64,000 bases of DNA from an uncultured Candidatus Saccharibacteria bacterium (GTDB lineage: Bacteria > Patescibacteriota > Minisyncoccia > Phycocordibacterales > JACNGX01): contig CAZULS010000002.1 in assembly GCA_964621395.1 (NCBI GenBank), positions 170,252-234,251 on the forward strand, in the 5' to 3' direction. Position 1 is the stretch's first letter. Every line of letters begins with the position of its first letter. Positions 19,504-58,397 of the stretch are shown here, piece after piece. A program made the translations under genes and the position numbers. The notes beneath the pieces were generated by a model. That model had not been told where the DNA came from. It was given only the letters and a program-made list of their open reading frames with translations, and did not search any database.

Positions 19504-19624
19504 AGGTCAGGAGATTAGTATATGAGTATGTTAGGAGGTTAGTGAGGCGGCTACGCCGCCTTGAAAACATATTCAGAACTCTTTTATTATACGGTAAAAG
19601 AGCAGGTGATTCCACGGTGGTGGT

Positions 19625-19677
19625 GGACAAAACATACGGCGCGGCGACCGGAGGTCGCCGCGCCGTATGTTTTGTCC
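19625..19677. terminator. long GC-rich hairpin terminator (ggacaaaacatacggcgcggcgacc gga ggtcgccgcgccgtatgttttgtcc)
   Basis: A perfect stem of about 25 bp. Similar GAAG/GGA-loop GC hairpins recur at 4120, 6153, 25832, 45856, 46921 and 49935. Confidence 0.6.
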
Positions 19678-19684
19678 TGGGCGT

Positions 19685-20710
19685 TTACGCAATAGAATAC
19701 CGCCCCTTCGTGTCGCGATTGAAGTATTTCGGATTCTGAAGGTTTACGATAATGGTATTGGGCTTCACGTAGCGTTCTTTCAAAACAAGATCGACGATTT
19801 CATCGCGTGTGAGCGGACCGTGCTTTTCAAGAAGCTGGCGAATCACATCGTGCACCACGCCCGGCATATATCCCCAATCGGTGAGTGCATACAGACCACG
19901 GCCAACAAGCACGAAACGGTCGTCCTTAATGAGCTCATTGTGGCACGTTGCCTTGTGTGCTTTGCGACCGAATGTCTCTTCGATGGCTTTTGCCACTTCA
20001 GAGAAGTGCATCGGATTGCCTTCGCGCCGAATAATCAAGTATGCGAGATCGCGAATGCTTTTGGCGCGCACGCTTGCTGATGCGGCCGGACCCCATTCAC
20101 CGAGAGGGTTCTTATCGATGGTTTTAGCAAGTTTGAGCCAGCGAAGGGCGTTGTCTTCATTTTTGTATTCATCAGCAACATCTTCAAGTGCGTCGAGGAA
20201 TTGTCCAACAAGCTCATTTTCAGGGACGAGTGCATCGCTATCAATTGAGGTGGCAATTTCGCGGAGTGCCCCTTCCACGCGACGAGCGATTTCCGCGTCC
20301 GTAATCCAGCGATGGCGGAATTCAGCATTTTCTTTTTCCTTCATGAAAGGATCACCCAAGACGAGGAAGAAGGTGATGTGATTTTGGACATTAGAATCAG
20401 ACGAGACATAGGAGAGAAGTTCATCTTCAGGCACGATGGCACCGAGCTTGGCAATAACCTCGCGAAGCTCCTCAAAAACCGGATTCGCTTTTTCAAAATG
20501 TTCCGACTTTCGGATAGCGGCAAGTGCGGCATTTTCAATCTGGCGAACACGCTCACGGGTGATGCCGTATTCCTGGCCGATTGCCTCAAGAGTGAGCCCT
20601 TTGTCAGACTCCAAACCAAAGCGCTTCACGACAACGTCGCGTGCACGATCGGAAATCCCCGAAAGGAGTTTCTTCGATATTGTCTTGGGATTAAATGAAA
20701 TGGTTTTCAT
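19685..20710 (-). CDS. sigma-70 region-4 (HTH) domain protein with unknown C-terminal domains
   Basis: At the N-terminus, ISKKLLSGISDRARDVVVKRFGLESDKGLTLEAIGQEYGITRERVRQIENAALAAIRK is a textbook sigma-70 region 4.2. The remaining 270 aa do not resemble regions 1-3 of a sigma factor. Confidence 0.65.
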   Translation of the reverse strand: MKTISFNPKTISKKLLSGISDRARDVVVKRFGLESDKGLTLEAIGQEYGITRERVRQIENAALAAIRKSEHFEKANPVFEELREVIAKLGAIVPEDELLSYVSSDSNVQNHITFFLVLGDPFMKEKENAEFRHRWITDAEIARRVEGALREIATSIDSDALVPENELVGQFLDALEDVADEYKNEDNALRWLKLAKTIDKNPLGEWGPAASASVRAKSIRDLAYLIIRREGNPMHFSEVAKAIEETFGRKAHKATCHNELIKDDRFVLVGRGLYALTDWGYMPGVVHDVIRQLLEKHGPLTRDEIVDLVLKERYVKPNTIIVNLQNPKYFNRDTKGRYSIA

Positions 20711-20824
20711 AAAGATATGATTAAATCTCGTCTGATAAATACTATCCAGAATGTCTATAATTGTCCCTCTAAGATAGCATACCCCCGAAACAGTGTCAAG
20801 CACTGTGTCAAGGGTAGGTGTTCT

Positions 20825-23800
20825 TTATGTCTTTATCACAATATTGACCAACTTTCCGGGAACCGTAATGACCTTGACAATCTCTTTGTTTTCAATGTGT
20901 TTTTGGATTTCGGGGAGTTTTTGTGCCTCCCTCTCAAGCTTATTTGGAGGTGTATCCGCACTCGTTTCAAACGTTCCTCGCACCTTGCCATTGACCTGGA
21001 CAACGATGGTAAGTGTCTCGTCGGCGAGCTTATTCTCATCATAGGAGGGCCATGGAATATCCACCACACTTCCCTCCTCTCCCAAATGCTCTCGAATCTC
21101 TTCAGCGCTATGAGGGCAAAATGGAGCAACGAGCGAGAGGAATGTGAGGTACGTTTCTTTGGAAAGTGTTGATTCTTCCTCAAGTGCATTGGCGAGAATC
21201 ATGAGGGCGGAAATTGCCGTATTGAAGCCAAAGATATCGATGTCTTCCCCCACCTTCTGTATTGTCTTGTGAAGGAGTGTTTCGGTTTTCTTTGGAAGCT
21301 CCGGCGCTTCGTCGGAAACCTTCTCAGCAAGTTTCCACACCCGCTCCACAAATCGTCGGGAGCCCATGATATTCTCCGTGCTCCACTGAGTGTCTTGATC
21401 AAATGCTCCCATAAACATCTCATACACGCGCAATGTATCAGCGCCGTATGTGTTGACGATATCATCAGGATTGATCACATTGCCAAATCGTTTACTCATC
21501 TTTCGGCCGTCTTCGCCGCCGATAAGACCCACGTGCTGGAGTCGGGCAAACGGCTCGCTCTCCGAGACCGCGCCAATATCATGAAGGAATTTATGCCAGA
21601 AACGCGCGTAGATCAAGTGCCGTGTGGCATGCTCGGCACCGCCCACATATGTGTCGACGGGTGACCAATACTTCTCCTTTTCCGGATCAACGAGCGCCGT
21701 GTCATTGTGCGGATCCATGAAGCGCAGATAATACCACGATGAGCCCGCCCACTGCGGCATGGTATTGGTTTCGCGCTTCGCCTTCCCGCCACACTTCGGG
21801 CAGGTGGTGTTGACCCATTCGACAATAGAGGCAAGCGGCGACTCTCCCGTGTCTGTCGGCTCATAGCTTTCAACCTCCGGCAATGTGAGCGGTAATTCAC
21901 TCTCGGGAATTGCCACAGCGCCACACTCTTCACAATGCACGATTGGAATCGGTTCACCCCAGTATCGCTGACGCGAAAAAACCCAGTCGCGGAGCTTGTA
22001 TGTTGTCTTGGAACGACCAACACCTTTCTCTTCCAGCCACGTGGTGATGGCAACGCGTGCCTCCGCCGATGTCATATGCGAGAATTCTCCGGCATCAACG
22101 ACCCAGCCATCGCTCGTAAAAGGAATGCGTCCATCTTTGCGTCTCTCCCATATCGGGAACTCAGCGCAGGCAAGATTCTCTCGCTTCCCTATCTCTTCCC
22201 ACGAAAGCCATGTAGGTGTGTGTTGCGCACGCTCTTCCTCATCCACCTCTTCTTGTGTGTCGTCGACGAGGGTGAAAAGCATGGCGTGCACAAACGCCAA
22301 GCGATTTTCATCCTTGTGTGCTGCAAAGAATTGATTGCGCACCGCTGATCCAAGCGAACGGACAAACTCAATATTGGTGTATCCTGTCTCTTCAATAATC
22401 TCTCTTCGTGCAGCCTCCGGCAAATCTTCCCCTTCATCAACGCCGCCGGTGATAAATGTCGTCCAATTTTGTTTTGGCCACTCCAGGCATAAATACTTGT
22501 CTGTCTTGGGATCATGAACAATGCCATGAATCATCGTACGAGCGACTGTCTCCTTTCCTTCACGAGGAGGGTTTTTCACATCGACAATATCAGGAATAAC
22601 GACATCATTGATTGGGAGGTTGTATTTTTTTGCAAAAGCAAAGTCGCGTTCATCATGTGAGGGCACTGCCATGACCGCACCGCTTCCATAATCACCAAGC
22701 ACATAATCGCCGACGAATACGGGAATATGCTCGCCGTTCGCCGGATTGATTGCTTCAATTCCTTCAATCTTCACACCGGTCTTTTCTTTCCCTTCCGCCG
22801 TGCGTTCGATTTCCGTTTTCTTTCTCGCTGTAGCGACGTAGTCGCGTATGTCGTCGTAATTCGTAATTCTTGATTCATTATTCTCAATCAGTGGATGCTC
22901 CGGCGCTACCACCGCATACGTGCATCCAAAAAGCGTGTCAGCCCGCGTGGTGAAGACGGTGAGACTGTCTGTCACTTCTCTCAGTATCTCTGGAACTTCT
23001 GGAGTCTTTTTTCCGAAATGTCCTTTATCTTCAAAAGTACAAAGTCGTGCATCAAGACCTCTTGCGTTCTCTTCTCCCGCAGAAAAAGGAACCCACTCAT
23101 CATCTTTAGAGTGAATGACGATAAATTCATTGCAGTGTTTTTTGATTTTTGAAAAATCATATCCTGTCTCCGAGAAAAATCCCTTTGATGATTTTTCTGC
23201 TTTTCCGGAATTTGTACTTACGAGTACGACTTTTGCGATTTGTTCTGAATCTTTAAGTTGCTCAAGGTACCGCATAACTGCCACGCCTCCTCGAGAGTGT
23301 CCGACGAGGATGGTGTTTGAGTCTAGTTTTAGGCTGTCTAAAACATCCAGCCATTCTTTGATATCGGGGTCTTCTGGAGACGGAAGCTCGGGAATTTCCA
23401 CCATATAGCCAAGGGACTCTAATTCTTGCGAAATCCACGGATACCATTTCTCTTTCGGAGACGTGTCTTTTCCATGCATGATAATGACACGTCTTTTTTC
23501 TTCAGAAACAATCGGAAAGTCAATTTCTGTTCCCACGCTCTTGCCGATCCAATTACGCTGGGATTCTTTAATTGATTCCGGCCAATCGAGACCTTCCAAA
23601 TCTTCGAGAAGACGGTCAGCATAATCGGTAATGCGAAGTACCCATTGGCGCATTGATTTCTTCTCGGTTTCCGTGCCGCAACGTTCACACATCGTGCCTT
23701 CGAGGTCTTCATTTGCAAGCCCTGTCTTGCACGAAGGACACCAGTTGATCGGCTCATCTGATTCATATGCGAGCCCTTTCTCAAACATTTTCAGAAATGC

Positions 23801-24238
23801 CCATTGTGTCCATTTGTAATACGCTGGATTGGTGGTGTTGATTTCACGTTCCCAATCATAGGAGAGGCCGATGATGGAGAGTTGCTTTTTATATCGCGCG
23901 ACATTCTCTTTCGTACACACTGCCGGATGGGTTTTGGTTTTCAGTGCGTAGTTTTCAGCGGGCAAGCCGAAAGCATCCCATCCCATCGGATGAAGCACAC
24001 TATATCCTTCCATTCTTTTTTTACGTGCGATTACATCGGTGGCAATATAGCCCTTCGGATGACCCACGTGAAGTCCTTGACCCGACGGATACGGAAACAT
24101 ATCCAAAATGTATGCCTTCTTGGGATTTGTGAGACTCTCGGGCGTACGATACACACCCTCCTCTGCCCATTTTTTCTGCCACTTCTTCTCAATGGATACG
24201 TGATCGTATTTCATAGGATTTGTGCACAAGCTGTACAA
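20825..24238 (-). CDS. leuS: leucyl-tRNA synthetase with inserted alpha/beta serine-hydrolase and Nudix hydrolase domains
   Basis: 1137 aa. HMGH (HVGHPKGY), KMSKS (KMSKRFGN), the LeuRS CP1 editing motifs TTRADT and GSGAVMAVPSHDERD, and the anticodon-binding domain. A hydrolase with GHSRGG is inserted at about 22970-23500. A perfect Nudix box GGVDEGEDLPEAARREIIEETGY is inserted at about 22124-22597. Confidence 0.9.
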   Translation of the reverse strand: MYSLCTNPMKYDHVSIEKKWQKKWAEEGVYRTPESLTNPKKAYILDMFPYPSGQGLHVGHPKGYIATDVIARKKRMEGYSVLHPMGWDAFGLPAENYALKTKTHPAVCTKENVARYKKQLSIIGLSYDWEREINTTNPAYYKWTQWAFLKMFEKGLAYESDEPINWCPSCKTGLANEDLEGTMCERCGTETEKKSMRQWVLRITDYADRLLEDLEGLDWPESIKESQRNWIGKSVGTEIDFPIVSEEKRRVIIMHGKDTSPKEKWYPWISQELESLGYMVEIPELPSPEDPDIKEWLDVLDSLKLDSNTILVGHSRGGVAVMRYLEQLKDSEQIAKVVLVSTNSGKAEKSSKGFFSETGYDFSKIKKHCNEFIVIHSKDDEWVPFSAGEENARGLDARLCTFEDKGHFGKKTPEVPEILREVTDSLTVFTTRADTLFGCTYAVVAPEHPLIENNESRITNYDDIRDYVATARKKTEIERTAEGKEKTGVKIEGIEAINPANGEHIPVFVGDYVLGDYGSGAVMAVPSHDERDFAFAKKYNLPINDVVIPDIVDVKNPPREGKETVARTMIHGIVHDPKTDKYLCLEWPKQNWTTFITGGVDEGEDLPEAARREIIEETGYTNIEFVRSLGSAVRNQFFAAHKDENRLAFVHAMLFTLVDDTQEEVDEEERAQHTPTWLSWEEIGKRENLACAEFPIWERRKDGRIPFTSDGWVVDAGEFSHMTSAEARVAITTWLEEKGVGRSKTTYKLRDWVFSRQRYWGEPIPIVHCEECGAVAIPESELPLTLPEVESYEPTDTGESPLASIVEWVNTTCPKCGGKAKRETNTMPQWAGSSWYYLRFMDPHNDTALVDPEKEKYWSPVDTYVGGAEHATRHLIYARFWHKFLHDIGAVSESEPFARLQHVGLIGGEDGRKMSKRFGNVINPDDIVNTYGADTLRVYEMFMGAFDQDTQWSTENIMGSRRFVERVWKLAEKVSDEAPELPKKTETLLHKTIQKVGEDIDIFGFNTAISALMILANALEEESTLSKETYLTFLSLVAPFCPHSAEEIREHLGEEGSVVDIPWPSYDENKLADETLTIVVQVNGKVRGTFETSADTPPNKLEREAQKLPEIQKHIENKEIVKVITVPGKLVNIVIKT

Positions 24239-24310
24239 ACAGTATGAATGATTGTATCAGAGATTTTGTGAAAATAAAAGCACAGATATATCGAAGCACG
24301 TAGCACGAGT

Positions 24311-24364
24311 CGCGCGCCAAAGTTAAGCTTTGGCAATTCTGCCAAAGCTTAACTTTGGCGCGCG
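24311..24364. repeat. family-3 palindromic element, copy 2
   Basis: cgcgcgccaaagttaagctttggcaattctgccaaagcttaactttggcgcgcg. Near-identical to 122-173. Confidence 0.7.
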
Positions 24365-24369
24365 GCTTT

Positions 24370-24535
24370 TCCATCCGCCCGTCATTCCGCACCACCACTC
24401 CACATGTCATCCCGCACTTGATGCGGGATCTACATGTTATGAAACAACTCTTTCGAGATCCCGCATCACCCACGCCCCAGTTTTCAAGAAAAAGGAAAAC
24501 TGAGCGGGGCAAGCGTGCGGGATGACATGGAAAGA
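24370..24535. repeat. cluster of family-1 REP-like palindromes (gtcatcccgcacttgatgcgggatc and variants)
   Basis: At least three units in 165 bp upstream of the leuS start. Confidence 0.6.
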
Positions 24536-24622
24536 AAAAGTGAACAGAAAAACAGCGCGACGCCGAAGGTGCCGCGCTGTTTTTTATACATATTTCATAT
24601 TTCGTTTTTCATATTTCTAATC

Positions 24623-27695: not shown

Positions 27696-28388
27696 CTACG
27701 CCACCTGTGCAAAAATGACAACGTAATTTTTTCCGAATGTTTTGGCGCATTTCGGACATGCGGTATAGTAGAAATACATCTTTTTGAGTTCCTTGTTCTG
27801 CGAGCCGACATATTCTTCCATCTCCTGTATCCATTGACGCATATTGCTGTACGGTCCTTCAAATACTTTTGTGAGGAAGGTTCCCGACATGCTCGCCATC
27901 TCACATCCGGGCACCTCGCGATCTACTTCCAGATATGCGTCGGCGCCCCAGAGGGATGTTTCGTCTGAGAGCATGATACCGTTTTCAGGGTATGCTTCAG
28001 CGGCTTCCACCTTTGTGTGCATGCGACCCATAACACTTCCGAAATTAAGCGGCATGTGAAGAAAAGAACGAATATGGTCTTTCACAAAAAGCTTGTTGTC
28101 CCACATAAACTCCTTCCCATCAAAATCTTCCGGATTGATGAGTGCACAGCATCCCGTTTGCGCATTGTCGTAATCGGAGCCAGTCTCACTGAAAATCGCG
28201 CAGGAAGAAAAAAATGTGTTAAAGAGCTGCGCTTGGCAGTTCTCGCACCTACATTGCGGCTGCACCTTGCCGCTCGACTGTGCCGCACAAGAGTGCGGCA
28301 CAGTCTCCGCAACTACGGTTCGCACGCAATCTATGCGCGAGAACAAGCCATTTTCAGTGAGACTGGCTCCGGTTTCTGATAGTTTCAT
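27696..28388 (-). CDS. hypothetical Cys-rich protein (putative Zn-ribbon pairs)
   Basis: 230 aa. CRCENC near the N-terminus and CPKC near the C-terminus. No family recognised. Confidence 0.5.
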   Translation of the reverse strand: MKLSETGASLTENGLFSRIDCVRTVVAETVPHSCAAQSSGKVQPQCRCENCQAQLFNTFFSSCAIFSETGSDYDNAQTGCCALINPEDFDGKEFMWDNKLFVKDHIRSFLHMPLNFGSVMGRMHTKVEAAEAYPENGIMLSDETSLWGADAYLEVDREVPGCEMASMSGTFLTKVFEGPYSNMRQWIQEMEEYVGSQNKELKKMYFYYTACPKCAKTFGKNYVVIFAQVA

Positions 28389-31790: not shown

Positions 31791-31796
31791 CGCACT

Positions 31797-34447: not shown

Positions 34448-34672
34448 GACCTTAGTATATCAGCACGCGTGTTTTTGCGCTAGCGCAAAAACACGCGTGC
34501 TGATAGTACGTCAGTATGTCAGGAGGTCAGTAAAAACAATCGGCGGGGCTTTCGCCCCGCCATCTGCTTTCCAACTTTTTTGCCATGCCCGAGCACGACC
34601 TGTCGTGCTTTAGGGTCGTGCCCGAGTGCGACTTGTCGCGCCTTAGAGTTTTTAGTGGGTAGTTTAGCAAGA

Positions 34673-35395
34673 CTATTTCCTCTCTGCAAAAATATCCAGT
34701 ACGTCACGTGCGGAGTCCTCCCCTACCTTTTTCTCAAAGAATTTCAATTCATCAAACTTTCTAAGCAAGATAAAGACAAAAATGATTGAACTCGCAAAAG
34801 CTCCCTTGAGGATGGAACTATAGACAAGCTCTTGAGATGGAATGATAGAAAGTGTGAGAAAAAGAATGGTGCCGAGGAAGTACATAAGCATCCACTGAAA
34901 GCGCGGCACTCGTTCGTAGTAGAGTGCAATCATGCTTTTGCGAATACTTTGGAGATCTTTGAGAGCATAGAGAATACGCTGAACGGAAAACGCAGCCACA
35001 GTTGGTAATTGCTCTCCCCCAAGCTTCTCTTCAATGAGAGTGTGTAGAGATGTAATGGTTTCAGATTTATGAGTGACATGGTAATCCCATGCATGGTTGG
35101 AGAGAATTGTCTCATAGTGTGCCGTGATAATCTGTTTTGATTTTGCTTGCACGTCAGTTCCTAAATGTCCGCATAACCGATAAATACCTGAAAGAGTCCC
35201 GTCAAAAGACGTGACGCGGTCGCGGATGGCGCTGTAACGATTACCTTGGCGCGCAATGAAAAATCCGGTGAAGATAGAGAAAAGGAATGTTGAAATCGTG
35301 AGAAGAATTTCGTAGTGCGCGATATGCCCGAAAGGCTGCACATAATACACAACAGACAAGACAGGAAAAATGAGGAAAGAAAGATAGTGTGCCAT
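34673..35395 (-). CDS. hypothetical membrane protein
   Basis: About 240 aa with N- and C-terminal TM helices. No family recognised. Confidence 0.45.
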   Translation of the reverse strand: MAHYLSFLIFPVLSVVYYVQPFGHIAHYEILLTISTFLFSIFTGFFIARQGNRYSAIRDRVTSFDGTLSGIYRLCGHLGTDVQAKSKQIITAHYETILSNHAWDYHVTHKSETITSLHTLIEEKLGGEQLPTVAAFSVQRILYALKDLQSIRKSMIALYYERVPRFQWMLMYFLGTILFLTLSIIPSQELVYSSILKGAFASSIIFVFILLRKFDELKFFEKKVGEDSARDVLDIFAERK

Positions 35396-35436
35396 ATAGC
35401 GTATAGTATAACACGGCAATAAGTCAGTATGTGTAT

Positions 35437-38134: not shown

Positions 38135-40609
38135 TTAGGCGGTCTCTTCGCCGTTATCTGATAATGTGTCATCTTCGACAGAAGTGTCCGGCTCGTTTCC
38201 GGTGTCGGAATCACTCTCATGTTCTGAAGAGTCGCCTGATTCTTCATGTGTTTCTTGAGAAGTATCATCTTCGGTGGGCGGTACATCTTCTGTTGTTTGG
38301 GCATCATGCTGATCTTCCAGAGGTGTGTCCTCTTCTCGCAGTGCTTCTTGCTCATCTTCCTCTACGGCAGAACCGGGCATCTCTTCTTCACTTTCTTCTT
38401 CGACCGATCCCGCTTCAGCATCGCTTGAATCTTCTTCCTCCGTATTCTCGGAAACTGTCTCCTCAGAGCCTTGTGTTTCGACATCCTCAGACTCGTCAGA
38501 AGCGGCAGTATCCGTGCCCTGTTCTTCACTCTCGGCCGATTCGCCCGACTCTGATTCCTCATCTTGAGAAGCTGTTTCGTCGTTCTCCTCGCCAACTTCA
38601 TCTTCCTCGACCAATCCTGCTTCAGCAGGACTGAGGTCTTCACCGTCTTCATCTCCTTCGCCCGATTCTGACGCATCACCTTCTTCATTGTCCTCATTAT
38701 TTTCAGAAGCCGTCGCGCTACCGTCATCAGCTGCTCCATCCTCAGCACCCGCGCCATCACTATCATCACCGGAATCCGAAGCACCGTCAGTACCATCGTC
38801 ACCGAGCATCATCGTATCACCTGATTCAACATCCGAACCCTCGGCCGATCCAGCTTCAGCTGGATGTAGGCTTTCCTCAGGCACAATCTCAATCGCCGGC
38901 ACCGCATAGGAAGCTGCATCCGGCACCTCTTCCCCTTCGTAGACAACCACAAGTCGTGTACCTGTGAGCTCATACCCGTCTGCCTCCGCTGTGTACACAA
39001 TCTCGTATACCCCCGCCACAGCGGTATCAACAGTTCCTTCCGTGTGCACGCTCATATCAGCACCCGAAGCATTCAAAACGCGCGCACCCATATCGCTATA
39101 CGAAGAACCAAGTGCCACAAGAGCCGGATTGTTGCCCACAATCTCCATTTCCGGCATCGGCTCATCCTCCGCCGGCACCGGCGTCATAAGCGGCTCGTCC
39201 ATCATCGCTTCAATCGGGAACGGATCCCATACACGACCACTAAAGGTAAAGGCATGTACCATTGGATTTTCCGGTCCGTATGCCACAAGTTTAATCCAGA
39301 TATTACCCACAAATCCGCTTGGCACCGTCCAGTCGTATTCTCCGGTATTACCAATACCCGTTGCAATCACGTGCTCGGTATCACCGTCGTCAATCACTTC
39401 ATCAGCATTGATATCGCGAATGTACGAAAGATCAATAGAGAGATCTCCGTCAGGACCGTTGTGGTTCTCTGCATTCCATTCAATGGTATAGGTGTATGTC
39501 CAGTACCATGTTTGTGAATTGTCGTTTTCATCGGGATTGAGCATATCCACGCTCGGCGGAAGAAGCTCACTCCAGTCCGCAGGTGTGTCGGTGTCGGTTC
39601 CCGAAGGATTACGCGCAAGCATGCCGCCCTCTTGCACAAGAGGTGCAGCCGGATCCCATACCGCCGTGTCGTCTCCCCAACCCACAGCATCAATCACCAC
39701 ACCATCGGGGCGCTTCAAAAGCAAATGGTCGCCATCGTTTGCCAAACCGCCACCGATTGCATTGTCGTCAATCTCAATCTTCACCACCTCATCCGGAATA
39801 TTCCAATAATCCCATGTCGTGCTCGTTGCTGAAATCACCGCATATCCGCCGGCGGGAATTGCCGGCGTGGACGTTGGCATAACATCACATGATGTATTAT
39901 CACACAGTTCCCACTCGGCAAATTCAAGCGGTACATCCGTCTGATTGAAAATCTCTATCCATTCATTCGCCGGCTCACTGCCGAGAGACGGCGCAACATC
40001 ATAATACACCTTATTGATACGCAATCCCCATGAGCTAATGGTATTTTCCACCTTTTCTGTATCGTAATATCCACCGAGCATGTATCCCGGCAGTTCCTTT
40101 TGCCAACCGTCGTACACAATATCAAACGAGCAAATCTTATTCTGATGATTTACCGGCGACGTGAGTGTGTAGTGCCAGGTGCCGAGGGTGTCTGCATCCG
40201 GTGCACTGGAAAACGCGGTAAGCGCACCATTATAGTATGTAGTCGAATCGTATTCGGCTTTAATATTCAAATCGTCACAGTAGTCGACATCGCCCGCCAT
40301 ATTATCAGCATGAGCGACGTAGTAAAAATCAGTACTGGTGCCTTCGTCGATAATTTCAATGTCTCGAAAACCGGTATTGCCGTAGAAAAGGTCTGCCTCC
40401 GATTCCGGCGGAGTCCAACTCGTCGGCTCCAAACGAAAGTCCAGCATATGCGCCGCAAAAAGATTGCCGTCTGAGCGTTCGGTATCGTTGTAGTAGCCAA
40501 ACGTCTCACCCACCGCCGAGAGCCCGGCGGCATTCATGCCCACAACAAGAAACACGGCGACGATGCGTCGAATTGCTTCTTGAATGTATTGTTCGTTAAG
40601 ACGAGTCAT
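38135..40609 (-). CDS. SipW-cognate (TasA/camelysin-like N-terminus) surface protein with lamin-tail domain and long acidic C-terminal tail
   Basis: 824 aa. The N-terminus GETFGYYNDTERSDGNLFAA parallels the AFFSDTETSTGNTFTAG motif of SipW-cognate proteins. An LTD-like segment is present (NEWIEIFNQTDVPLEFAEWELCD..AIPAGGYAVIS). The C-terminal 260 aa are D/E/S-rich with LHPAEAG / LSPAEAG / SDAEAG repeats. Confidence 0.7.
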   Translation of the reverse strand: MTRLNEQYIQEAIRRIVAVFLVVGMNAAGLSAVGETFGYYNDTERSDGNLFAAHMLDFRLEPTSWTPPESEADLFYGNTGFRDIEIIDEGTSTDFYYVAHADNMAGDVDYCDDLNIKAEYDSTTYYNGALTAFSSAPDADTLGTWHYTLTSPVNHQNKICSFDIVYDGWQKELPGYMLGGYYDTEKVENTISSWGLRINKVYYDVAPSLGSEPANEWIEIFNQTDVPLEFAEWELCDNTSCDVMPTSTPAIPAGGYAVISATSTTWDYWNIPDEVVKIEIDDNAIGGGLANDGDHLLLKRPDGVVIDAVGWGDDTAVWDPAAPLVQEGGMLARNPSGTDTDTPADWSELLPPSVDMLNPDENDNSQTWYWTYTYTIEWNAENHNGPDGDLSIDLSYIRDINADEVIDDGDTEHVIATGIGNTGEYDWTVPSGFVGNIWIKLVAYGPENPMVHAFTFSGRVWDPFPIEAMMDEPLMTPVPAEDEPMPEMEIVGNNPALVALGSSYSDMGARVLNASGADMSVHTEGTVDTAVAGVYEIVYTAEADGYELTGTRLVVVYEGEEVPDAASYAVPAIEIVPEESLHPAEAGSAEGSDVESGDTMMLGDDGTDGASDSGDDSDGAGAEDGAADDGSATASENNEDNEEGDASESGEGDEDGEDLSPAEAGLVEEDEVGEENDETASQDEESESGESAESEEQGTDTAASDESEDVETQGSEETVSENTEEEDSSDAEAGSVEEESEEEMPGSAVEEDEQEALREEDTPLEDQHDAQTTEDVPPTEDDTSQETHEESGDSSEHESDSDTGNEPDTSVEDDTLSDNGEETA

Positions 40610-40785
40610 GTACCTAGGAAATTAGGAGATTAATAAGTTAGGAGGTTAGTATTCGCGCGCTAACGCGCGCTCCTCATATTCACCAAAGCAAACGGCTAAT
40701 TCAAGCTTTGCCCGAGCACAGCTTGCTGTGCTTTAGGGTCATTTTTTGTTTGGTTTTTGATATTTTTCTTTTTATCGTTCATCGT

Positions 40786-43386: not shown

Positions 43387-44802
43387 TTAGTCAACTTGAA
43401 CCAAGAGACCAAACTGTTCTCCCCCGCTTCCCGTGGGAGTTGTTGACCATGTCGCTGTAACTTGACCTGTAAGAGTGAAGCCATCAGCAAGCTGAGTGTC
43501 GCCACTAATGACAAGAGAGCCCTTATCACCTGCTCCTGATGCAGAAGTTGAATCAGGACCGACAGGACTCATGCCGTCAAGTTGAACATTTGCCAGTACG
43601 AGTGATGCGTCGGGAGCATCTGAATTAACCTTCAAAGTAAGACCAAGGTTAGAGCCATCAACTGCCGGAACCGTAGTCACAGCGTTTACAGACTTATCAC
43701 CAACAGTAAACGTTGCATTGCCTGCACCATCGTACGTCAGAGTGAAGTCTTCTGTCACACCGCTACGCCACAAACCTGTTGCGTTATCAGTATGTGTCTG
43801 TGCGATTGGACTACCTCCTCCCGGAAGTCCAATGCGAATTTCGTTTTGTGCAGCAGTTGTTCCTCCGTCACCATAGCGTGCATCTGCTTGCCATGATTCA
43901 TCAAACGAACCCACAGAACTTGCCCATGTTTCGCCTTCCACGGAGGTGATATCGCGAGGGTTCATGCTTGAACACACGAAGTCTCCATTGTTACGTGACT
44001 GTACAGCGTAGAATTCTACATCCACTTCCATACCATCGGTTTGGGTGAGGTTGGTAGTGTTTGCACCGCTACAAGTGAAACCGGTACCACGATCGAGCGG
44101 ACCGTTCTGCCCGGTCTTTCCCTCGTTGTCCTGGGTGACAGCGGCTTCTGCCATGTCACCAAGACACCAGTATTTTGCAATGTAGTGTACCGGCTCATTG
44201 TTGTCACCACCGGCGATGGGACCGCCCGTCTGTGTCCATACATTGTATTGGGAGTCTGCGAGTGCAATGTAACTGCCGTCAAAGAGAGTTGCAGCAGAAC
44301 CTTGTCCCATGAAGATGTATTCACCACCATCGGGACCCTCATACACATTGTCACCATCGTCGTTCCAGAATGCGAATTGGAGCTCGTCCTGAAGCTCGCC
44401 GTCAGTTTCTACGGCACAGGAGTCGTCTACTTCACCTTCCGGCTCTGTACATTCATTGTCTGGTGTCGCCGTGATATCAATCGCCATACATGCATACGCA
44501 TCATTGTTGTTGACATGAATGGAGATGGTGTCTTCACCGCGGTCACCTGGCTTGATGTCGAGGAAATTGAAGAAAAGACCCATGTCCTCATCAATACCCC
44601 AGGACGTAGCAGGGCTTGCCACCAAGTCACCGTCCATGTTGGTGACATAGCTTTCATTGTCGATCTTGAGATCAATCGCGCCGGCGGTGAATGTGTTGCC
44701 GGTTGATGTCTCCGTGTCGGAGAAGAATGCGCCTGTTGCGCCTGCGACTGCAACGCCCGCAAACACAAGCATCGCAATACTCATAAAGAGTTGTTTGTTC
44801 AT
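43387..44802 (-). CDS. SipW-cognate TasA/camelysin-like secreted protein
   Basis: 471 aa. ATGAFFSDTETSTGNTFTAGAIDLKIDNES after the signal peptide. Confidence 0.75.
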   Translation of the reverse strand: MNKQLFMSIAMLVFAGVAVAGATGAFFSDTETSTGNTFTAGAIDLKIDNESYVTNMDGDLVASPATSWGIDEDMGLFFNFLDIKPGDRGEDTISIHVNNNDAYACMAIDITATPDNECTEPEGEVDDSCAVETDGELQDELQFAFWNDDGDNVYEGPDGGEYIFMGQGSAATLFDGSYIALADSQYNVWTQTGGPIAGGDNNEPVHYIAKYWCLGDMAEAAVTQDNEGKTGQNGPLDRGTGFTCSGANTTNLTQTDGMEVDVEFYAVQSRNNGDFVCSSMNPRDITSVEGETWASSVGSFDESWQADARYGDGGTTAAQNEIRIGLPGGGSPIAQTHTDNATGLWRSGVTEDFTLTYDGAGNATFTVGDKSVNAVTTVPAVDGSNLGLTLKVNSDAPDASLVLANVQLDGMSPVGPDSTSASGAGDKGSLVISGDTQLADGFTLTGQVTATWSTTPTGSGGEQFGLLVQVD

Positions 44803-45689
44803 AAATAATCAGTAGAACAGTAATCAGTATGTCGGGATATGAGTATGTATAGAGGATAAAAAAAGTTATCCACAGTTCTTTCCAAAGGTTTAACCTTTGG
44901 AAAACAATATATCTATTCCGACATATCCGAATACTGCAATGAATAAACGAATAAGAAGTATATTTTGAGCGGAGCACAAAAAAACTCTCCACCCGAAATA
45001 CGCTTACAAAGCTGATAAAAAGTGAAAGAGCCAAAGGATCTATGCTGCTATTATATTTTTGTGAGCGCGCGGAAAGTGTTTGTACGTTCGCTGTATTTCG
45101 CACTCGGTAGAACCGAAGACATTCGCCTCGACTCGACCGAGCACGAACATATGGATGTGTTCGCGCACCACATGTTCTCAATTCAAAGTAATGTTTTTCA
45201 GTATCCGAATCGTTTCTCCCCTGCACATAATTGTACTCCTCAGAGAAAAGTGATTCAAATGAAAATAAAGTTGGGAAAGGAAACGGACGGTTCGTCAATC
45301 TCCATGTGACGAAGGATTGAGACGGTATGCCTGACATTGCGTGTCGCGGGTTACCCGACCGCTTGTGTTTTGGCACTGTCTTGAACCGCCTGTATCTTCC
45401 TTCCCCAACATTAAAAAAGAGTCTACTTCCCATACTCTACCCCTCCCGCATATTGTCAAGACCCAAAACAAAGCCCAACATGTCCTTTATGATGTGTCAA
45501 TCTGTTGCCTAAAGGACACCCAAAAAACCCTGCAAAAGAAAGCCCAAAATCCCCTGTCCCTTACATGTCCGATAGAACATATCAAAATACAAAAATAAAA
45601 TATCAAACAAAAACGTAATCCGAAATCTCGCAGACAAAACCAAAGACTATCTTTGGTATGCATACCAAAGATAGTCTTTGGTTTTGTAA

Positions 45690-49364: not shown

Positions 49365-49453
49365 GGAGATTGGTTACCTCTCTGCATCTTGCAGCGCGGT
49401 CCGTCAGTACCTTGTGGTACGGGGCCGCTTTTTTATGCATAAAGCACGAAGTA

Positions 49454-49481: not shown

Positions 49482-49535
49482 ACTATTCAGAGTTTTTAGA
49501 CACAATTTTCGCAAAACCTTATCCAAGGGGGACTT

Positions 49536-50229: not shown

Positions 50230-50422
50230 ATACGTGAGAAAATTAATTAATAAATTATATAATTTATTATATAATAAATTAATTAATTTTTTTATCCACA
50301 CATAATACTTTTCTTCTTTTTTATCATTTCAACCTCTCCGAGTCGGAATAGTGCGGGATGACAAGATGGGTAGTACACAAAAACACCCCCTTTAGGGGTG
50401 TTTTTGTGACTAATGGTCAGTG

Positions 50423-50460
50423 TGGACCCGACTGGGTTCGAACCAGCGACCTCCTGATTG
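50423..50460 (-). pseudogene. tRNA-Ala 3'-half fragment (anticodon-loop position 36 to discriminator)
   Basis: 38 nt identical to the 3' half of the intact tRNA-Ala at 50526-50599. Identity ends exactly at the anticodon loop (..cctgattg|). Confidence 0.7.
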
Positions 50461-50525
50461 TACCGAAAAGCAAGAAGTGGAACGGCTATGCTTTTCATAT
50501 CCCGTAAAAATGATAATGGTCAGTG

Positions 50526-50599
50526 TGGACCCGACTGGGTTCGAACCAGCGACCTCCTGATTGCAAAACAGGTGCTCTAGCCAACTGAGCTACGGGCCC
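50526..50599 (-). tRNA. tRNA-Ala (anticodon UGC)
   Basis: A manual cloverleaf folds with acceptor GGGCCCG/CGGGUCC, the G3:U70 Ala identity pair, a D-arm GCUC-AGUUGGCUA-GAGC, anticodon loop UUUGCAA, T-arm GCUGG-UUCGAAC-CCAGU and discriminator A. CCA is not encoded. Confidence 0.85.
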
Positions 50600-50688
50600 A
50601 CACTACTCACTATAAGGATATGGTACGGACAAAAGGACTTACTCGGGATCTCGAAAAATATATTCGCTTTGCTCATTATTTTTCGGGA

Positions 50689-50724
50689 CAAAACAGGTGC
50701 TCTAGCCAACTGAGCTACAGGCCC
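50689..50724 (-). pseudogene. tRNA-Ala 5'-half fragment (position 1 to anticodon position 35), 1 mismatch
   Basis: 36 nt matching the 5' half of the intact tRNA (gggcctgtagctcagttggctagagcacctgttttg). It ends at the same anticodon-loop junction as the 3'-half fragment. Confidence 0.7.
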
Positions 50725-51294
50725 AAGTGAGGAATATTATATAGAACACACCAAAAAAAGCAAGGGATTTTGGGTGTTAATTGAATAAAAAACCACCTCA
50801 ATCATAGAGGTGGTATGGAAATCGGGAACAAATTTTCGCACGAACGGCGACATTCCCTCACGGATACGTATTTTTTCTTCTCCATTCTCGTTCTTTCTCT
50901 GCGTATTGCTTCCTGTTCCTCGGCCATCGCCTTTGCTTTTTTATACTGACGACAAAGAGTAAATGGGAACAAATGTAATCCATCATCCTCGAAAAGCCCA
51001 ATGCCTTTTTCAGCATACTTCATAAAGGAATTATGGGCATATTTCTCTGCTGCTTTCAAAAAATGCAGGTACATATTACCCGTTGATAGAAAAGAAAAAA
51101 CCGGTTCGGGGGAAAGAATGACGCGCTTCAGTAAGAACAACGATATCCTCTTCGCACCCTTTTCCGCGCATCGACAAGAAAGAGAAAAAAGGATATGGCG
51201 TTTGTATGCTCTGTATATTTCTCTCAAACCGAAAGAAATAAGAGAGCATGTGGTCAAAAAAGATTGTCTGTTCATAGCACACTCCTTTTTGTTT

Positions 51295-51729
51295 TTAAGC
51301 AAAACCGAATATTTGTCTTTCGAAAGTCTGAACAAACTTCTCATTGACAACCGCTTTACGCAGAAGCGCAATAAGAATTTCGTTCAAGGTTTCCGAAGCA
51401 CACGAAAAGTCCGACAAGGACCCTTCTGCCACCCCTTCCACTCGCTCACGCAATTCTAGAAAAGCTTCAACGCTTTTCCCGACACACGGACCTTTTTTCA
51501 ACTCTGCAAGAAGCGAGCTGAAGAAGAGATCTCCGTGATTGATGAGAATTAACCCATTCTTTCTTTGCAGTATGTCAATCCATGTCATCCCTTCAAGCAG
51601 TTCTACAAACCGCTTCTCGTCGGCGGGGGTCATTGCGGTTTTTGAAGGCGTGGCGACACTTTTTCTTCCTTGGTCGTCTCTCAGCAGTGTTTTTTTGCTC
51701 ATTTCCCAAAATTCTTTTGAAGTTACCAA
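51295..51729 (-). CDS. hypothetical protein
   Basis: 144 aa. The translation is protein-like, and there is a divergent promoter region at 51730-51810. No family recognised. Confidence 0.4.
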   Translation of the reverse strand: MVTSKEFWEMSKKTLLRDDQGRKSVATPSKTAMTPADEKRFVELLEGMTWIDILQRKNGLILINHGDLFFSSLLAELKKGPCVGKSVEAFLELRERVEGVAEGSLSDFSCASETLNEILIALLRKAVVNEKFVQTFERQIFGFA

Positions 51730-51816
51730 AAATTCCAGATTTCACCATACCATACACTCATTTTGTTTGTCAAATGCTTGTGTTGAAAAGATGTGTATGG
51801 GATGTATAATGATTGT

Positions 51817-52290
51817 ATGAGTAACCGCTATGAAATGCCAAACGAGGTAGAAGTAATGGTGCCTGAAAAGGCCATTCATAAAGTGGCACAGATTTATACT
51901 GAGCATCTCATGCAGCCAGGTAACGCTGAAGCACTTATTTCCGAGGCGCTTGAGCGTATTGGACGTAAAGAGAAGAACACTATTAATGCCAATGAGGTTC
52001 GCATTGCGGCACTGGAACGTGTTGCTGAAGATAACGGCGGTGTATTACCTGAAGGTTCACTGCGTGATTTGTATAAAGAAAAAGTTATTGAAGAAATTAC
52101 GGAGATAATGTGTGCTGAGCCGTACGATCCCACTGATCCTGAGAGAGTTGTAGAGTATTACAACAAGCCACAACAGCTTCTTATTGCACATGAGCCATTT
52201 CGGGTAATGTTTTCCGGTGAGATAAATAAGATTACGAAGGATATTTTAGGAGATGAACGTCTTGCGTTCAACATTGCTGAGACGGGATAA
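51817..52290 (+). CDS. hypothetical protein (alternative start ATG 51856 with GAGGT RBS)
   Basis: A TTGAAA-16-TATAAT promoter at 51783-51810 sits inside the ORF-track start (51793), so the true start must be downstream. No family recognised. Confidence 0.45.
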   Translation: MSNRYEMPNEVEVMVPEKAIHKVAQIYTEHLMQPGNAEALISEALERIGRKEKNTINANEVRIAALERVAEDNGGVLPEGSLRDLYKEKVIEEITEIMCAEPYDPTDPERVVEYYNKPQQLLIAHEPFRVMFSGEINKITKDILGDERLAFNIAETG

Positions 52291-52314: not shown

Positions 52315-52384
52315 GGATCCTGAATCACCAAGTACCATTTTCACTAAAGCGAAAAAAGTGCTCGGCACGAGTTCAGGATGACGA
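52315..52384. repeat. family-5 nested palindrome, copy 3
   Basis: ggatcctgaatcaccaagtaccattttcactaaagcgaaaaaagtgctcggcacgagttcaggatgacg. Confidence 0.65.
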
Positions 52385-52869: not shown

Positions 52870-52897
52870 ATGGAAATAGTGAATGAATAAAATTATA

Positions 52898-53083
52898 AGA
52901 GCCTGTTCGTAATCTCATGTCGTGCGTGATATGCCCATATACCGAGCGAAAATCGTGAAAAACGTTGATGGAGTACTGCCGTACTTCGAGACGTTTTGAG
53001 CGATTTGCAGCCGGTATATGGGCATATCAGCCGACAAGGACAATTTTATTCATTCAATTCCGTTGAGATTGTGAACAGGCTCT
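52898..53083. mobile_element. MITE-like foldback element, family A copy 3
   Basis: 186 bp. TIRs agagcctgttcgtaatctca / tgagattgtgaacaggctct. The internal 17-bp arms gatatgcccatataccg / cggtatatgggcatatc pair perfectly. It ends 3 nt before the atpC stop codon. Confidence 0.7.
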
Positions 53084-53086
53084 AAG

Positions 53087-53527: not shown

Positions 53528-53693
53528 AGTAATTATTTTTAGGGTTTTCTTGGGGAGACCGAGCACCACATTGATGTGTTTAGAAATATATATATTCAGC
53601 TCAGTAATCATACTACTGAGGAGATTATAAACTCATAATAATCATAGATGTGGTGCTCGGTGACAGAAGAGTGTGTGATGACAAAAAGAATAT

Positions 53694-55103
<1,410 letters not shown>

Positions 55104-55212
55104 TTAAAAATTAAACATCGAATTACGAATATGTACAAATATACAAATTACAAATGGGTATATCAATGGGAAAGACACGGCTATATTTGTAATTTGTATA
55201 TTTGTAATTCGT

Positions 55213-56205: not shown

Positions 56206-56268
56206 ACGGTATTTTCGGAAAGGACGGTCCTGTCTGCAGGACGGTGAAAAGTGTAGTGTAATGTTTTT

Positions 56269-57795
56269 TTATTCTTTTTCCTTCTCGAGATAATCGAGCG
56301 TTGCGCGGTAGTCAGTGATAAGCGCTTTCAGTTTCTCTTCGAGTTCATCGTTAAATACCCCTTTTTCAGCGAGCTCGGTGAGCACCTCCTTGCCCGATGT
56401 GTCGGCATAGGCGTACAATCCTTCTTCAAAGGAGCGCACGTGCTCTACCGGCACATCATCCACAAAGCCATGCAGGAGTGCGTAAAAAACGATTACCTGC
56501 TTTTCGTCAGCAATCGGCGCATACTGACCCTGCTTGAAGACTTCTGAAAGACGTTTTCCGCGTTCCAGGCGCTGCGCTGTCTCTTCATCAACATCAGAAC
56601 CAAATTGAGCAAATGCCGCAAGTTCACGATACTGTGCCGCCTCAATACGCATCTTGCCGGCAACTTTTTTCATGACCTTTGTTTGTGCTGATGAGCCCAC
56701 ACGCGATACGGAGAGCCCGGCATTTACCGCAGGACGTACACCTTGGTGAAAGAGATCGGTTTCAAGATAGATTTGTCCGTCGGTAATGGAAATTACATTG
56801 GTCGGGATATATGCAGACACGTCGCCTGATTGGGTTTCGATAACGGGAAGTGCGGTAATTGACCCGCCACCGTAATCATTATTCAAACGACACGCGCGCT
56901 CAAGCAAACGCGAGTGGAGATAGAAGACATCTCCCGGATACGCTTCACGGCCCGGCGGGCGACGAAGAAGGAGTGAAATTTCTCGATAGGCAACAGCATG
57001 CTTGGAGAGATCATCGTAAATCACAAGCACGTCTTCACCTTTATCAAGGAAATATTCGGCAATTGCAGTGCCGGCATACGGAGCAATATATGAAAGAGAG
57101 GCCGGATCCGATGCTCCTGAGAGCACCACAGTTGTGTACTCCATTGCTCCGTGTTCTTCGAGTTTGGCGACAATGCCGGCGACTTTCGACTCTTTCTGAC
57201 CGATTGCCACATACACGCACTTCATGTTTTTACCTTTTTGATTAATGATTGTGTCGATGGCAATTGCTGTCTTTCCTGTTTGGCGATCGCCGATGATAAG
57301 CTCACGCTGACCACGACCAATGGGCACCATCGCATCAATTGCCTTCATGCCTGTTTGCATCGGCACCGACACAGATTGACGTGTAATCACACCCGGGGCC
57401 ACCTTCTCCACCGGATAAAAGGCATCACTTACAACAGCTCCCTTGCCATCAAGTGGTGTGCCAAGCGGACCAACCACCCGACCGATCATTCCCTCACCAA
57501 CAGGCACCTCAAGAATACGCCCTGTTGCTTTTACCGTGTCTCCCTCCTTCATATCGCCATATTCACCGAGAACGATAGCGCCAATCTGCCCTTCCTCAAG
57601 GTTCATCACAACGCCAAAAGCGTCGCTCTCTCCTTCACCGAATGAAAGCATTTCCGACATGCGTGCTTCAGGGAGACCACTTACGGTAACGATACCGTCG
57701 CCGATTGCAACAACCGTACCAAATGATGTGTCGGAGATATCGCGGGTGAAGCCGGCGATACGTTGTTTGAGTTCATCGATGATGATGTCTTTCAT
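56269..57795 (-). CDS. atpA: F1 ATP synthase alpha subunit
   Basis: 508 aa. P-loop GDRQTGKT. Confidence 0.95.
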
Positions 57796-57937
57796 GATTA
57801 GTATGTCAGTATGTTAGTAAATTAGGAGGGTAGTATGTCAGTATGAATCGCTGCTACGCAGCTCCTTTTATTGGTAAATATTTGTACCATTTGTAGATTT
57901 GTAATTATTCGTACATTCGGAGTCCTTGTAATTTGTT

Positions 57938-58342
57938 CTAATGTGTTTTCAGTGCAGTACTGAGTTTCTTCAATGTGTGTTTGAGGCTTCCGTCGAGGAG
58001 GCGATTTTCATATCGGAGGGTAACGCCGCCAAGAAGCGACATGTCTGTCTTCTCAGAGAGCTCAACGAAAGTAGCATTCGTCTTTTCTTTTACATACTCC
58101 GTAATAATATGCTTCTCGCTTTCCGAGAGCTCTTTCGCTGAAGTAACATGAGCATGAACCCTTCCCTCTTCTCTATCATATAAGCGCCGAAGAGCCTCAA
58201 GAATTTCGTCTGCATACGGCAACATCATGTCTTCGGAGAGCACAGTGCAAAAACGGCTGAGAACCTCGGCACGTTCCTCACCGCCTTCTTCGAGGGCGGC
58301 TTTGAGTGCGCGGGCATAATATTGTGGGCTCGGTTTTTTCAT
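57938..58342 (-). CDS. atpH: F1 ATP synthase delta (OSCP) subunit
   Basis: 134 aa. Sits between atpF and atpA. The C-terminal LLGGVTLRYENRLLDGSLKHTLKKL is OSCP-like. Confidence 0.7.
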   Translation of the reverse strand: MKKPSPQYYARALKAALEEGGEERAEVLSRFCTVLSEDMMLPYADEILEALRRLYDREEGRVHAHVTSAKELSESEKHIITEYVKEKTNATFVELSEKTDMSLLGGVTLRYENRLLDGSLKHTLKKLSTALKTH

Positions 58343-58397
58343 AATTCAGTAAGTCAGTACATGAGGAGGGTAGTATGAATCGCCGCTTCGCGGCTCT

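Follow-up and report, generated by a model that had tools for sequence, protein, structure and literature searches.

Hairpin-coupled octamer arrays before start codons in a Patescibacteria genome: possible unstructured leaders for Shine-Dalgarno-independent initiation

How the ribosomes of Patescibacteria, the candidate phyla radiation (CPR), choose start codons is essentially unstudied, and a 64,000-nt stretch of contig CAZULS010000002.1 (the window) raises the question of what can precede a start codon in this group. In it, six minus-strand genes, atpA and atpH among them, are preceded on the sense strand by tandem CATACT-type repeats that include the motif CCTCC. The nearest atpA matches among species-representative genomes are metagenome-assembled genomes of Candidatus Falkowbacteria and Parcubacteria (72–73% identity), and the host is therefore a Patescibacteria bacterium. 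The element is described here as one family of cassettes, usually a short GC hairpin followed by an 8-nt simple-sequence array, and is tentatively read, at a probability of about 0.45, as a repeat-derived, unstructured leader for initiation that does not depend on a Shine-Dalgarno (SD) sequence.

All six sites, read on the minus strand with re-verified coordinates (Table 1), carry the CATACT/CCTCC sequence described in the original prediction, five of them in register and the sixth, at 44803-44857, as a degenerate copy that has no GNA-loop GC hairpin. The gene labels given there agree with Pfam (DUF389, LTD plus Ig-like, Peptidase_M73/TasA-like, and OSCP for atpH). A matrix of 40 registered units, including two orthologous leaders of one relative (L206, GCA_964627865.1), yielded the consensus Y-N-T-M-C-T-R-A, with hardly any variation at T3, C5 and T6 and the least conservation at position 2 (A16/C13/G3/T8, 0.2 bits). 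The repeats had been thought to surround a CCTCC core. The repeats are there, but CCTCC is no separate core, because replacing A by C at positions 2 and 4 of CATACTRA gives CCTCCTRA, which stands in the same 8-nt register.

Strict arrays, defined as at least two in-register octamers of the form NNT[AC]CT[AGC]A, number five in the window where 0.175 would be expected (200 dinucleotide shuffles gave at most 2), which bears out the proposal of a small sense-strand repeat family immediately upstream of start codons. All five are intergenic and lie on the minus (sense) strand, 2–63 nt upstream of a minus-strand start, and three end 2–3 nt before the ATG. CATACT itself occurs 44 times where 19.9 were expected (maximum 30 in 100 shuffles), 32 times on the minus strand; AYCTCCTRA occurs 10 times against 1.6 expected, with six of the eight minus-strand matches in pre-start leaders and the two plus-strand matches in tRNA-Ala fragments. 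Tandem Repeats Finder assigned the atpA array a period of 8 and 6.0 copies. The arrays are head-to-tail repeats of a unit in the 5–11 nt range, longer than chance, and as such belong with long simple sequence repeats (LSSRs). Five of the six begin 0–8 nt after a GC hairpin of 5–8 bp with a GNA or GNNA loop (GTA, GAAA, GTTA, GTA and GAA), and the atpA and atpH cassettes together form a 52-nt dispersed direct repeat (D12).

Ends of T[AC]CT fall preferentially 5–6 nt before the ATG and recur in 8-nt steps at 13, 21, 29 and 37 nt; 13 ends lie at 4–7 nt where a uniform distribution would give 6.3. The arrays are thus in phase with the start codon. The exact CCTCC unit lies 21–36 nt from the ATG at atpH, atpA and the genes 38135..40609 and 18259..19503, that is, outside SD distance. 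Only the variants TCTCCT and TTTCCT (TTCCT) sit 5–6 nt from the ATG, in about five genes, and most ATG-proximal units read TCTCCT, TTTCCT or CTTACT. The leaders are poor in G (1–4 per 39–55 nt; 3 in 54 nt before atpA, 1 in 42 nt before gene 18259..19503), and alternative start codons are scarce, with none in the atpA leader and 8 in 15 array leaders where 20.6 were expected. None of the six contains GGAG, GAGG or AGGA within 20 nt of the ATG. The idea that the mRNA holds the complement of an SD where an SD would be expected is not supported by these positions, nor by the count of CTCC-type 4-mers near starts (14 of 50, against about 15 estimated by hand from the G-poor composition). CCTCC/CTCCT on the sense strand has the same sense as the canonical 16S rRNA tail and is not its complement. 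Small plus-strand open reading frames (ORFs) with an SD and ATG, also raised at the outset, gain no support and were set aside: they would encode mostly 3–17 amino acids in an organism that hardly uses SDs; the larger plus-strand ORFs are two of 44 and 65 amino acids with GTG/TTG starts at the 19503 site and one of 163 amino acids antisense to atpF.

Scarcity of SD sequences extends to the clade. SD-like 4-mers were counted upstream of 4 of 44 genes in the window and 32 of 361 in 32 Patescibacteria loci, against 38 of 75 in non-CPR loci (Acidobacteria and Firmicutes from the same query). CPR loci have no G peak at −12 to −7, and T stood at −1 in 72% of starts in the window, 67% in the other Patescibacteria loci and 24% in non-CPR loci. 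Over the window and 36 Patescibacteria loci (L002–L033, L203 and L205–L207) T at −1 ranges from 56 to 72% and G at −1 from 0 to 4%, with no purine peak at SD distance. T at −1 without a purine peak is a clade-wide initiation context. Upstream 40-mers contain 15.6% G, against 25% in the coding sense. Gene 50802..51275 on the minus strand has a canonical SD (aaaaaggag-N6-ATG) and is 66% identical to L203:15938-16411, which has ggggagggg-N6-ATG; mismatches by codon position (37/32/73) mark it as a real conserved gene. It encodes a conserved 157-aa protein, and few other genes are led by a canonical SD in both genomes. Since a conserved gene with a purine SD in both genomes implies a normal anti-SD, the 16S tail is suggested to be canonical; no 16S 3′ end was found in the window and 81 loci.

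Folding does not support the structured or sequestering leader of the original prediction. The leaders have z-scores of −0.7 to −1.6, no better than shuffles, and the predicted structures leave the stretch between hairpin and ATG unpaired. Unpaired probability averaged over −25 to +10 around the start codon has a mean of 0.67 in CATACT leaders; coding controls give 0.45 (p = 3e-4) and other starts 0.49. Significant folding is limited to an inserted palindrome and to spacers in which arrays form inverted repeats. The hairpins are not intrinsic terminators in the sense direction, where they are followed by GATTCATACT or similar sequence without a T-run; the exception is the hairpin at 34542-34561, followed by GATTGTTTTT. 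Four hairpins of the atp region are terminator-like on the antisense strand only. No Rfam 15 family reached its gathering threshold in the window except tRNA-Ala, and the element qualifies neither as an SD element nor as a terminator nor as an Rfam family.

The CATACT family is one of several 7–8-nt array families that adjoin gene ends, and 26 of 31 period-7/8 arrays are intergenic. The 13 arrays within 60 nt before a start are pyrimidine-rich (A.30, C.20, G.11, T.38), whereas the 9–11 just past a stop are A-rich (A.51, C.10). In the sister families ACTCGAA, AACGATA and AGAAATT the orientation follows the gene on both DNA strands; further units are ATTCGTA/ATTTGTA, AAACTAA and TTTATCG. Per 10 kb there are 4.8 period-7/8 arrays in the window, 5–9 in several Parcubacteria loci and 0–2.3 in non-CPR loci. 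Loci L022, L004 and L023 combine a post-stop purine array with a pre-start pyrimidine array, often as long inverted-repeat stems, and the unit TACGAAT/ATTCGTA is common to the window and L023 (Moranbacteria), where it is used alike.

Relatives at 83–89% atpA identity were obtained by protein search followed by contig look-up. L206 keeps both atp cassettes with different numbers of units (seven against four in the window before atpH, five against six before atpA). Its atpH hairpin, GTCGC-GAA-GCGAC, is a compensatory double change from GCCGC-GAA-GCGGC, and before atpA a different hairpin, GTCTGCC-GGTA-GGCAGGC, leads into TATACTAA CCTCCTCA TTTACTCA CTTACTAA TCTCCTGA-CGT-ATG. In L205 (89%) 5 nt separate atpF from atpH, and the atpA leader is of TTTATCG type. 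The atp operon of L203 (84%) is compact, with spacers of 12, 30, 56, 23 and 4 nt and arrays at none of these five junctions, while its atpE-atpF spacer does carry arrays. Across genomes with 83–100% atpA identity the atpF-atpH spacer measures 5, 12, 55 or 178 nt. The cassettes are therefore heritable, gain and lose units, keep the hairpin fold and are dispensable for a particular gene. In the window they sit between atpF and atpH and between atpH and atpA, junctions of 5–30 nt in relatives, so these genes are presumably co-transcribed. The array-adjoining atpA start is four codons shorter than in L203, L205, L206 and L207: the protein begins MKDIII, where relatives have MSTTQHKDII, MSTSETKDII or MPTTETKDII, and the cassette may have taken the place of the original N-terminal codons and brought an ATG of its own.

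On the favored reading, the CATACT/CCTCC element would be one family of "GC hairpin plus 8-nt simple-sequence array" cassettes acting as 5′-untranslated or intercistronic leaders. We infer that transcription passes through the short GC hairpin into the array, the RNA of which, 40–55 nt long, G-poor, with few start and many stop codons and predicted to be single-stranded, would end 2–4 nt before the AUG. The array may then serve as an SD-independent loading or standby platform for the 30S subunit, through putative S1-type or direct binding and helped by the clade-wide U at −1, and the hairpin at its 5′ edge would insulate the platform from upstream structure. As RNase J, PNPase and RNase III are retained in CPR genomes (PMC12641178), the hairpin is probably also nuclease-protective, blocking RNase J (5′→3′) and PNPase (3′→5′), so that the downstream 5′ end and the upstream 3′ end would be protected after processing. 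Arrays would arise and change by replication slippage and by the copying of whole cassettes. In a more ambitious and quite doubtful form, hairpin, YNTMCTRA arrays and ACU/GCU-core sisters would make up a portable non-SD "ribosome binding site (RBS) code", in which a dedicated single-strand RNA-binding factor or ribosomal protein reads the 7–8-nt spacing, the MCURA core is shared with the TAACTGA repeats discussed below, and CPR bacteria rewire translation and cistron-level mRNA stability by copy and paste.

Several findings weigh against a leader function. Low G and depletion of start codons follow automatically from repeating a unit that lacks them, and the other array families are no more accessible than ordinary starts (0.47 against 0.49). 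The 5–6 nt phase suits an RBS-like element, yet it nearly suits the −10 element of a leaderless promoter. L203 and L205 translate the same genes behind array-free spacers of 5–30 nt, so the cassette is dispensable and could be tolerated rather than selected.

Tolerance without selection is the substance of a rival that we consider unlikely, though with a real chance of being right: the repeats would be neutral or selfish DNA that multiplies by slippage and copy-paste and is kept where it is harmless (between genes, in the orientation that avoids G, structure and starts), with no role in expression. Turnover is rapid: the atpA leader is of CATACT type in the window and L206, of TTTATCG type in L205 and missing from L203. 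Whole cassettes recur as dispersed repeats (D12 and the groupings D4 and I7 below), and other repeats and palindromes abound between the genes of the window. CATACTRA (CATACTGA) arrays are also ordinary microsatellites in many unrelated metagenome contigs: scans for CATACTRACATACT-N0-26-CATACTRA gave one viral match and at least 120 metagenome matches, with no CCTCC unit nearby and only four adjoining an ORF, almost all of them unrelated microsatellites in varied GC backgrounds and so uninformative about lineage. Such DNA would not be expected to show the strict sense orientation, followed by sister families on both strands, nor the phasing to the ATG, the split between A-rich post-stop and pyrimidine-rich pre-start arrays, the compensatory changes in hairpin stems, or an architecture that recurs in distant Parcubacteria and Moranbacteria, down to the ATTCGTA unit common with L023. 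Orientation, phase, split and compensation point at least to purifying constraints. All of these features, the recurrence included, could nonetheless stem from purifying selection against harmful insertions and need not reflect a positive function.

A promoter cassette is improbable. TGnCATACT would be an extended −10 and cTGACA a −35 element at the boundary of a small transcription unit, with the hairpin halting transcripts that arrive from upstream or from the antisense side and an mRNA that has a short leader or none. CATACTGA-CATACT does produce TGaCATACT, which is extended −10-like, and CATACT retains A at position 2 and T at position 6. Likely leaderless arrangements, TGnTATA(A/C)T-N6-7-ATG, stand at 13851 (TGATATAATaacgtcATG), at 35437 and 33734 (TGaTATACTaaggtcATG) and in L203 at 4278 (TATACTggggtcATG), and the hairpins of the atp operon are terminator-like on the antisense strand. 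Promoter function is not favored because position 2 of the unit, the would-be essential −11 A of the hexamer, is the least conserved, being A in only 16 of the 40 units, whereas T6 is invariant. The ATG-proximal units are not −10-like, and the last hexamer lies 4–6 nt from the ATG, closer than in the leaderless examples (6–9 nt). A consensus scan of the atp region, which misses −10-only promoters, found 10 promoters against 10.4 expected, and relatives tightly pack the operon that contains the cassettes. Two genes have better −10 elements, upstream of the hairpin or array: 18259..19503 (Table 1) and 3162, where TGgTATACT precedes the ACTCG array. Both would place the arrays inside 5′ untranslated regions.

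A relation to rRNA is very improbable. CUCCU would either pair with an altered 16S tail, SD and anti-SD being swapped, or mimic the anti-SD tail for a factor that binds ACCUCCU (an Era-type KH domain, or bS21). The canonical 16S tail is ACCUCCUUA, which ACCUCCU(A/G)A matches. TCTCCT or TTCCT does lie 5–6 nt before the ATG in about five genes, and the share of genes with a CTCC-type 4-mer upstream is 20% in the window and 3.9% in other Patescibacteria loci, but the CCTCC unit is in register and interchangeable with CATACTRA and usually 21–36 nt from the ATG, the counts near starts match the G-poor estimate, and canonical SDs exist in the lineage (gene 50802..51275 and its L203 ortholog). In addition, among the 16S tails of a large survey no altered anti-SD had a correspondingly altered SD (PMC6107228).

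Scarcely credible is a structured leader in which the start region would be masked or freed by pairing of CCUCC with a GGAG at another place in the mRNA: in the minimum-free-energy folds of the atpA and 38135..40609 leaders GGAG 5′ of the hairpin does pair with CCUCC 3′ of it, and the centroids retain the helix (five pairs for atpA, four of them for 38135..40609), but this happens in two of six leaders only, the L206 atpA ortholog has no GGAG, the z-scores are not significant and the ATG region is unpaired either way.

Table 1. Positions of leaders, hairpins and other repeats in the window (hyphens within sequences separate stem, loop and spacer).
Feature	Position (strand)	Sequence or remark
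atpA leader	57796..57849 (-)	GATT + CATACTGA CATACTAC CCTCCTAA TTTACTAA CATACTGA CATACTAA + TC; ATG at 57795
GC hairpin, atpA	57850..57862 (-)	GCTGC-GTA-GCAGC, directly 5′ of leader; A-tract before hairpin
atpH leader	58343..58381 (-)	GATT + CATACTAC CCTCCTCA TGTACTGA CTTACTGA + ATT; ATG at 58342
GC hairpin, atpH	58382..58394 (-)	GCCGC-GAA-GCGGC, 5′ of leader, 3 nt past atpF stop codon
Leader of gene 18259..19503	19504..19545 (-)	TCACTAA CCTCCTAA CATACTCA TATACTAA TCTCCTGA + CCT; then ATG
GC hairpin, gene 18259..19503	19546..19560 (-)	GGCGGC-GTA-GCCGCC, 5′ of leader
Perfect TATAAT hexamer	19586-19591 (-)	25 nt upstream of hairpin of gene 18259..19503; read directly from sequence
Leader of LTD/Ig-like gene 38135..40609	40610..40654 (-)	AATACTAA (also GAATACTAA) CCTCCTAA CTTATTAA TCTCCTAA TTTCCTAG + GTAC; then ATG
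GC hairpin, gene 38135..40609	40655..40670 (-)	GCGCGC-GTTA-GCGCGC, 5′ of leader
Array upstream of DUF389 gene	34503..34541 (-)	GATTGT TTTACTGA CCTCCTGA CATACTGA CGTACTAT; 57-63 nt from ATG
GC hairpin, DUF389 gene	34542..34561 (-)	GGCGGGGC-GAAA-GCCCCGCC, 5′ of array
Perfect 46-nt palindrome	34459..34504 (-)	splits DUF389 array; resembles TA-flanked insertion; fold z = -10
Last DUF389 unit	34448-34458 (-)	(T)ATACTAA + GGTC, past palindrome; adjoins ATG at 34447
Degenerate array	44803..44857 (-)	before Peptidase_M73/TasA-like gene 43387..44802; CATACT twice, ATCCTCT for CCTCC
Single unit, atpD	55092..55104 (-)	A-TCTCCTAA-CATC before ATG
Single unit, atpC	53612..53628 (-)	TCTCCTCA + GTAGT before annotated ATG
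Single unit, gene 41780	43100-43116	
Single unit, bestrophin-like gene 34673..35419	35420..35431 (-)	CATACTGA + CTTA before TTG start
Single unit, LeuRS	24239..24246 (-)	CATACTGT, directly adjoining TTG start
AAGCTAT cassettes	58887-58941, 33597-33650, 31617-31700, 43100-43160	nearly identical before four unrelated genes
A-rich post-stop heptamer arrays	4090-4122, 8444-8475, 15013-15045, 24589-24617, 40771-40802, 43267-43299, 55182-55206, 59061-59091	
Small palindromes	14671-14722, 14977-15028, 31716-31800, 34580-34631, 40703-40754	
Small palindromes, further sites	24314-24388, 124-198, 45688-45757, 52316-52382, 43166-43235	

The repeat load of the window is unusually high for a small CPR genome. 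The AAGCTAT cassettes, about 48 nt long, precede atpF and the genes at 33156, 29832 and 41780, each with a GC hairpin (loops GAA, GCA and GTGA), CTAYAAGCTAAAAGCTATCAGCTAYAAGCTCY, 3–4 nt and the ATG; their hairpin stems differ in sequence and all pair, and the dispersed-repeat grouping D4 adds a fifth, AAACTAA-type copy at 41423-41470. The post-stop arrays (AACGATA, AGAAATT, GAAATAT and TACAAAT) begin 3–12 nt past the stop in the sense of the gene, on both strands, give TAA or TAG in all three frames, often have a GC hairpin following them, and are the purine-strand mirror of the pre-start arrays. In the atpG-atpD spacer (55105-55212), TACAAAT/TACGAAT and ATTTGTA/ATTCGTA arrays form an AU-rich inverted-repeat stem of about 28 bp (fold z = −8), a plausible RNase III substrate. 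At distant loci (I7; 32989-33043 and 57879-57933) the same array is present in both orientations.

Longer elements are also dispersed. One of about 190 nt, with terminal inverted repeats AGAGCCTGTTCATAATCTCA ... TGAGATTATAAACAGGCTCT and no Rfam match, lies at 13512-13662, 29247-29397, 52893-53086 and, inverted, 59597-59790; three copies end about 15–25 nt before the ATG of genes 10740, 28813 and 52435, and the inverted copy, in the atpB-atpE spacer, is 96% identical to that at 52893-53086. A repeat of about 140 nt (...AAGCCATTTAATATGAGATGGGT) is found at 1025-1164, 28231-28370 and 59375-59515, one copy within the 5′ part of ORF 27696..28388, where either the start has been wrongly assigned or the coding sequence tolerates the element. 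Small intergenic palindromes fall into the families GACCCTAAAGCACnnCAAGnnGTGCTCGGGCA, GATYCCGS...SCGGRATGAC and CCAAAGGTTAAACCTTTGG.

The leucyl-tRNA synthetase (LeuRS) encoded at 20825-24238 on the minus strand has 1137 amino acids, with inserted Ser_hydrolase (residues 251–410) and NUDIX (588–687) domains. The region 46996-52290 around gene 50802..51275, of lower GC (0.43), has several SD-led plus-strand ORFs, for which a Pfam search gave no matches, and may be a foreign island. In it the 3′ part of tRNA-Ala(TGC) (50525-50599, minus strand) is duplicated exactly over 50 nt (50411-50460 = 50514-50563), 103 nt from the gene, and its 5′ part is partially copied near 50680-50720; these part-copies may be att-like remnants of integration events.

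Should the cassettes prove to attract ribosomes or to set the ends of processed cistrons, they would offer a small and transferable substitute for the SD, would account for the unexplained TAACTGA repeats of giant sulfur bacteria and would provide parts for SD-independent expression hosts. Even as neutral DNA they matter for annotation, as gene callers trained on SDs can mis-place starts, and the atpA N-terminus varies by 7–15 residues among close relatives. Searches of the literature on CPR initiation and tandem repeats brought up no description of such arrays in CPR. Among known systems, the intercistronic hairpins of repetitive extragenic palindromes and bacterial interspersed mosaic elements (REP/BIME) and the 5′ stabilizer stem-loops are short GC palindromes between cistrons that could block exonucleases and set differential mRNA stability. 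The hairpins of the window are likewise short GC palindromes between cistrons of one operon, but they have 5–8 bp and GNA/GNNA loops and are coupled to a downstream array. The tobacco mosaic virus omega leader (ACAAUUAC plus CAA repeats) and the upstream enhancer of Escherichia coli atpE are unstructured enhancers whose SD-independent or SD-assisted binding of the 30S subunit is classically ascribed to S1. These leaders are G-poor, repetitive and unpaired, as the arrays are predicted to be; they are single, experimentally tested ones, whereas the arrays are a genome-wide, evolving family of putative leaders. Start regions of Bacteroidetes are A-rich. SD-independent initiation in that phylum (PMC7797042) also goes with few SDs and G-depleted leaders, but the lineage of the window differs in its U at −1, its pyrimidine/A repeats and at least one conserved gene with a canonical SD.

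The long simple sequence repeats of prokaryotes, with units of 5–11 nt (Mrazek, Guo & Shah 2007, summarized in PMC4679880), are, like the arrays, heptamer-dominated tandem repeats, mostly non-coding and ascribed to polymerase slippage. They are not described as systematically adjoining starts or stops with strand-specific composition, nor as coupled to hairpins. TAACTGA heptamer repeats are known upstream of starts in marine Beggiatoaceae, some Cyanobacteria and Bacteroidetes (MacGregor 2015, PMC4679880); in Beggiatoaceae they are forward repeats that end about 1 nt before SD-less starts, and a translational role with binding of S1, Csp or Csr was proposed (PMC4679880). ACTGA-core start-proximal repeats occur outside CPR and Beggiatoaceae as well, as judged from the Acidobacteriaceae atpA-atpG spacers (L043:11540-11600; L066 near 11559), where (ACTGAGA)n lies 10–11 nt before the atpG ATG with a complementary GTTCTCRG array upstream. 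The arrays of the window share with the TAACTGA repeats a forward, tandem, intergenic arrangement that ends a few nt before the start and overlaps the expected RBS, almost no G, mostly SD-less downstream genes (the repeats are rarely found with an SD) without functional pattern and with housekeeping genes among them, and the unit core MCTRA (ACTGA/ACTAA/CCTAA). They differ in being degenerate octamers, YNTMCTRA with a period of 8 rather than 7 and C-rich CCTCCTRA variants, usually with a GC hairpin (GNA/GNNA loop) in front, in sharing the genome with A-rich post-stop arrays and five or more further pre-start families, and in belonging to a CPR host, in which SD-less initiation is the rule.

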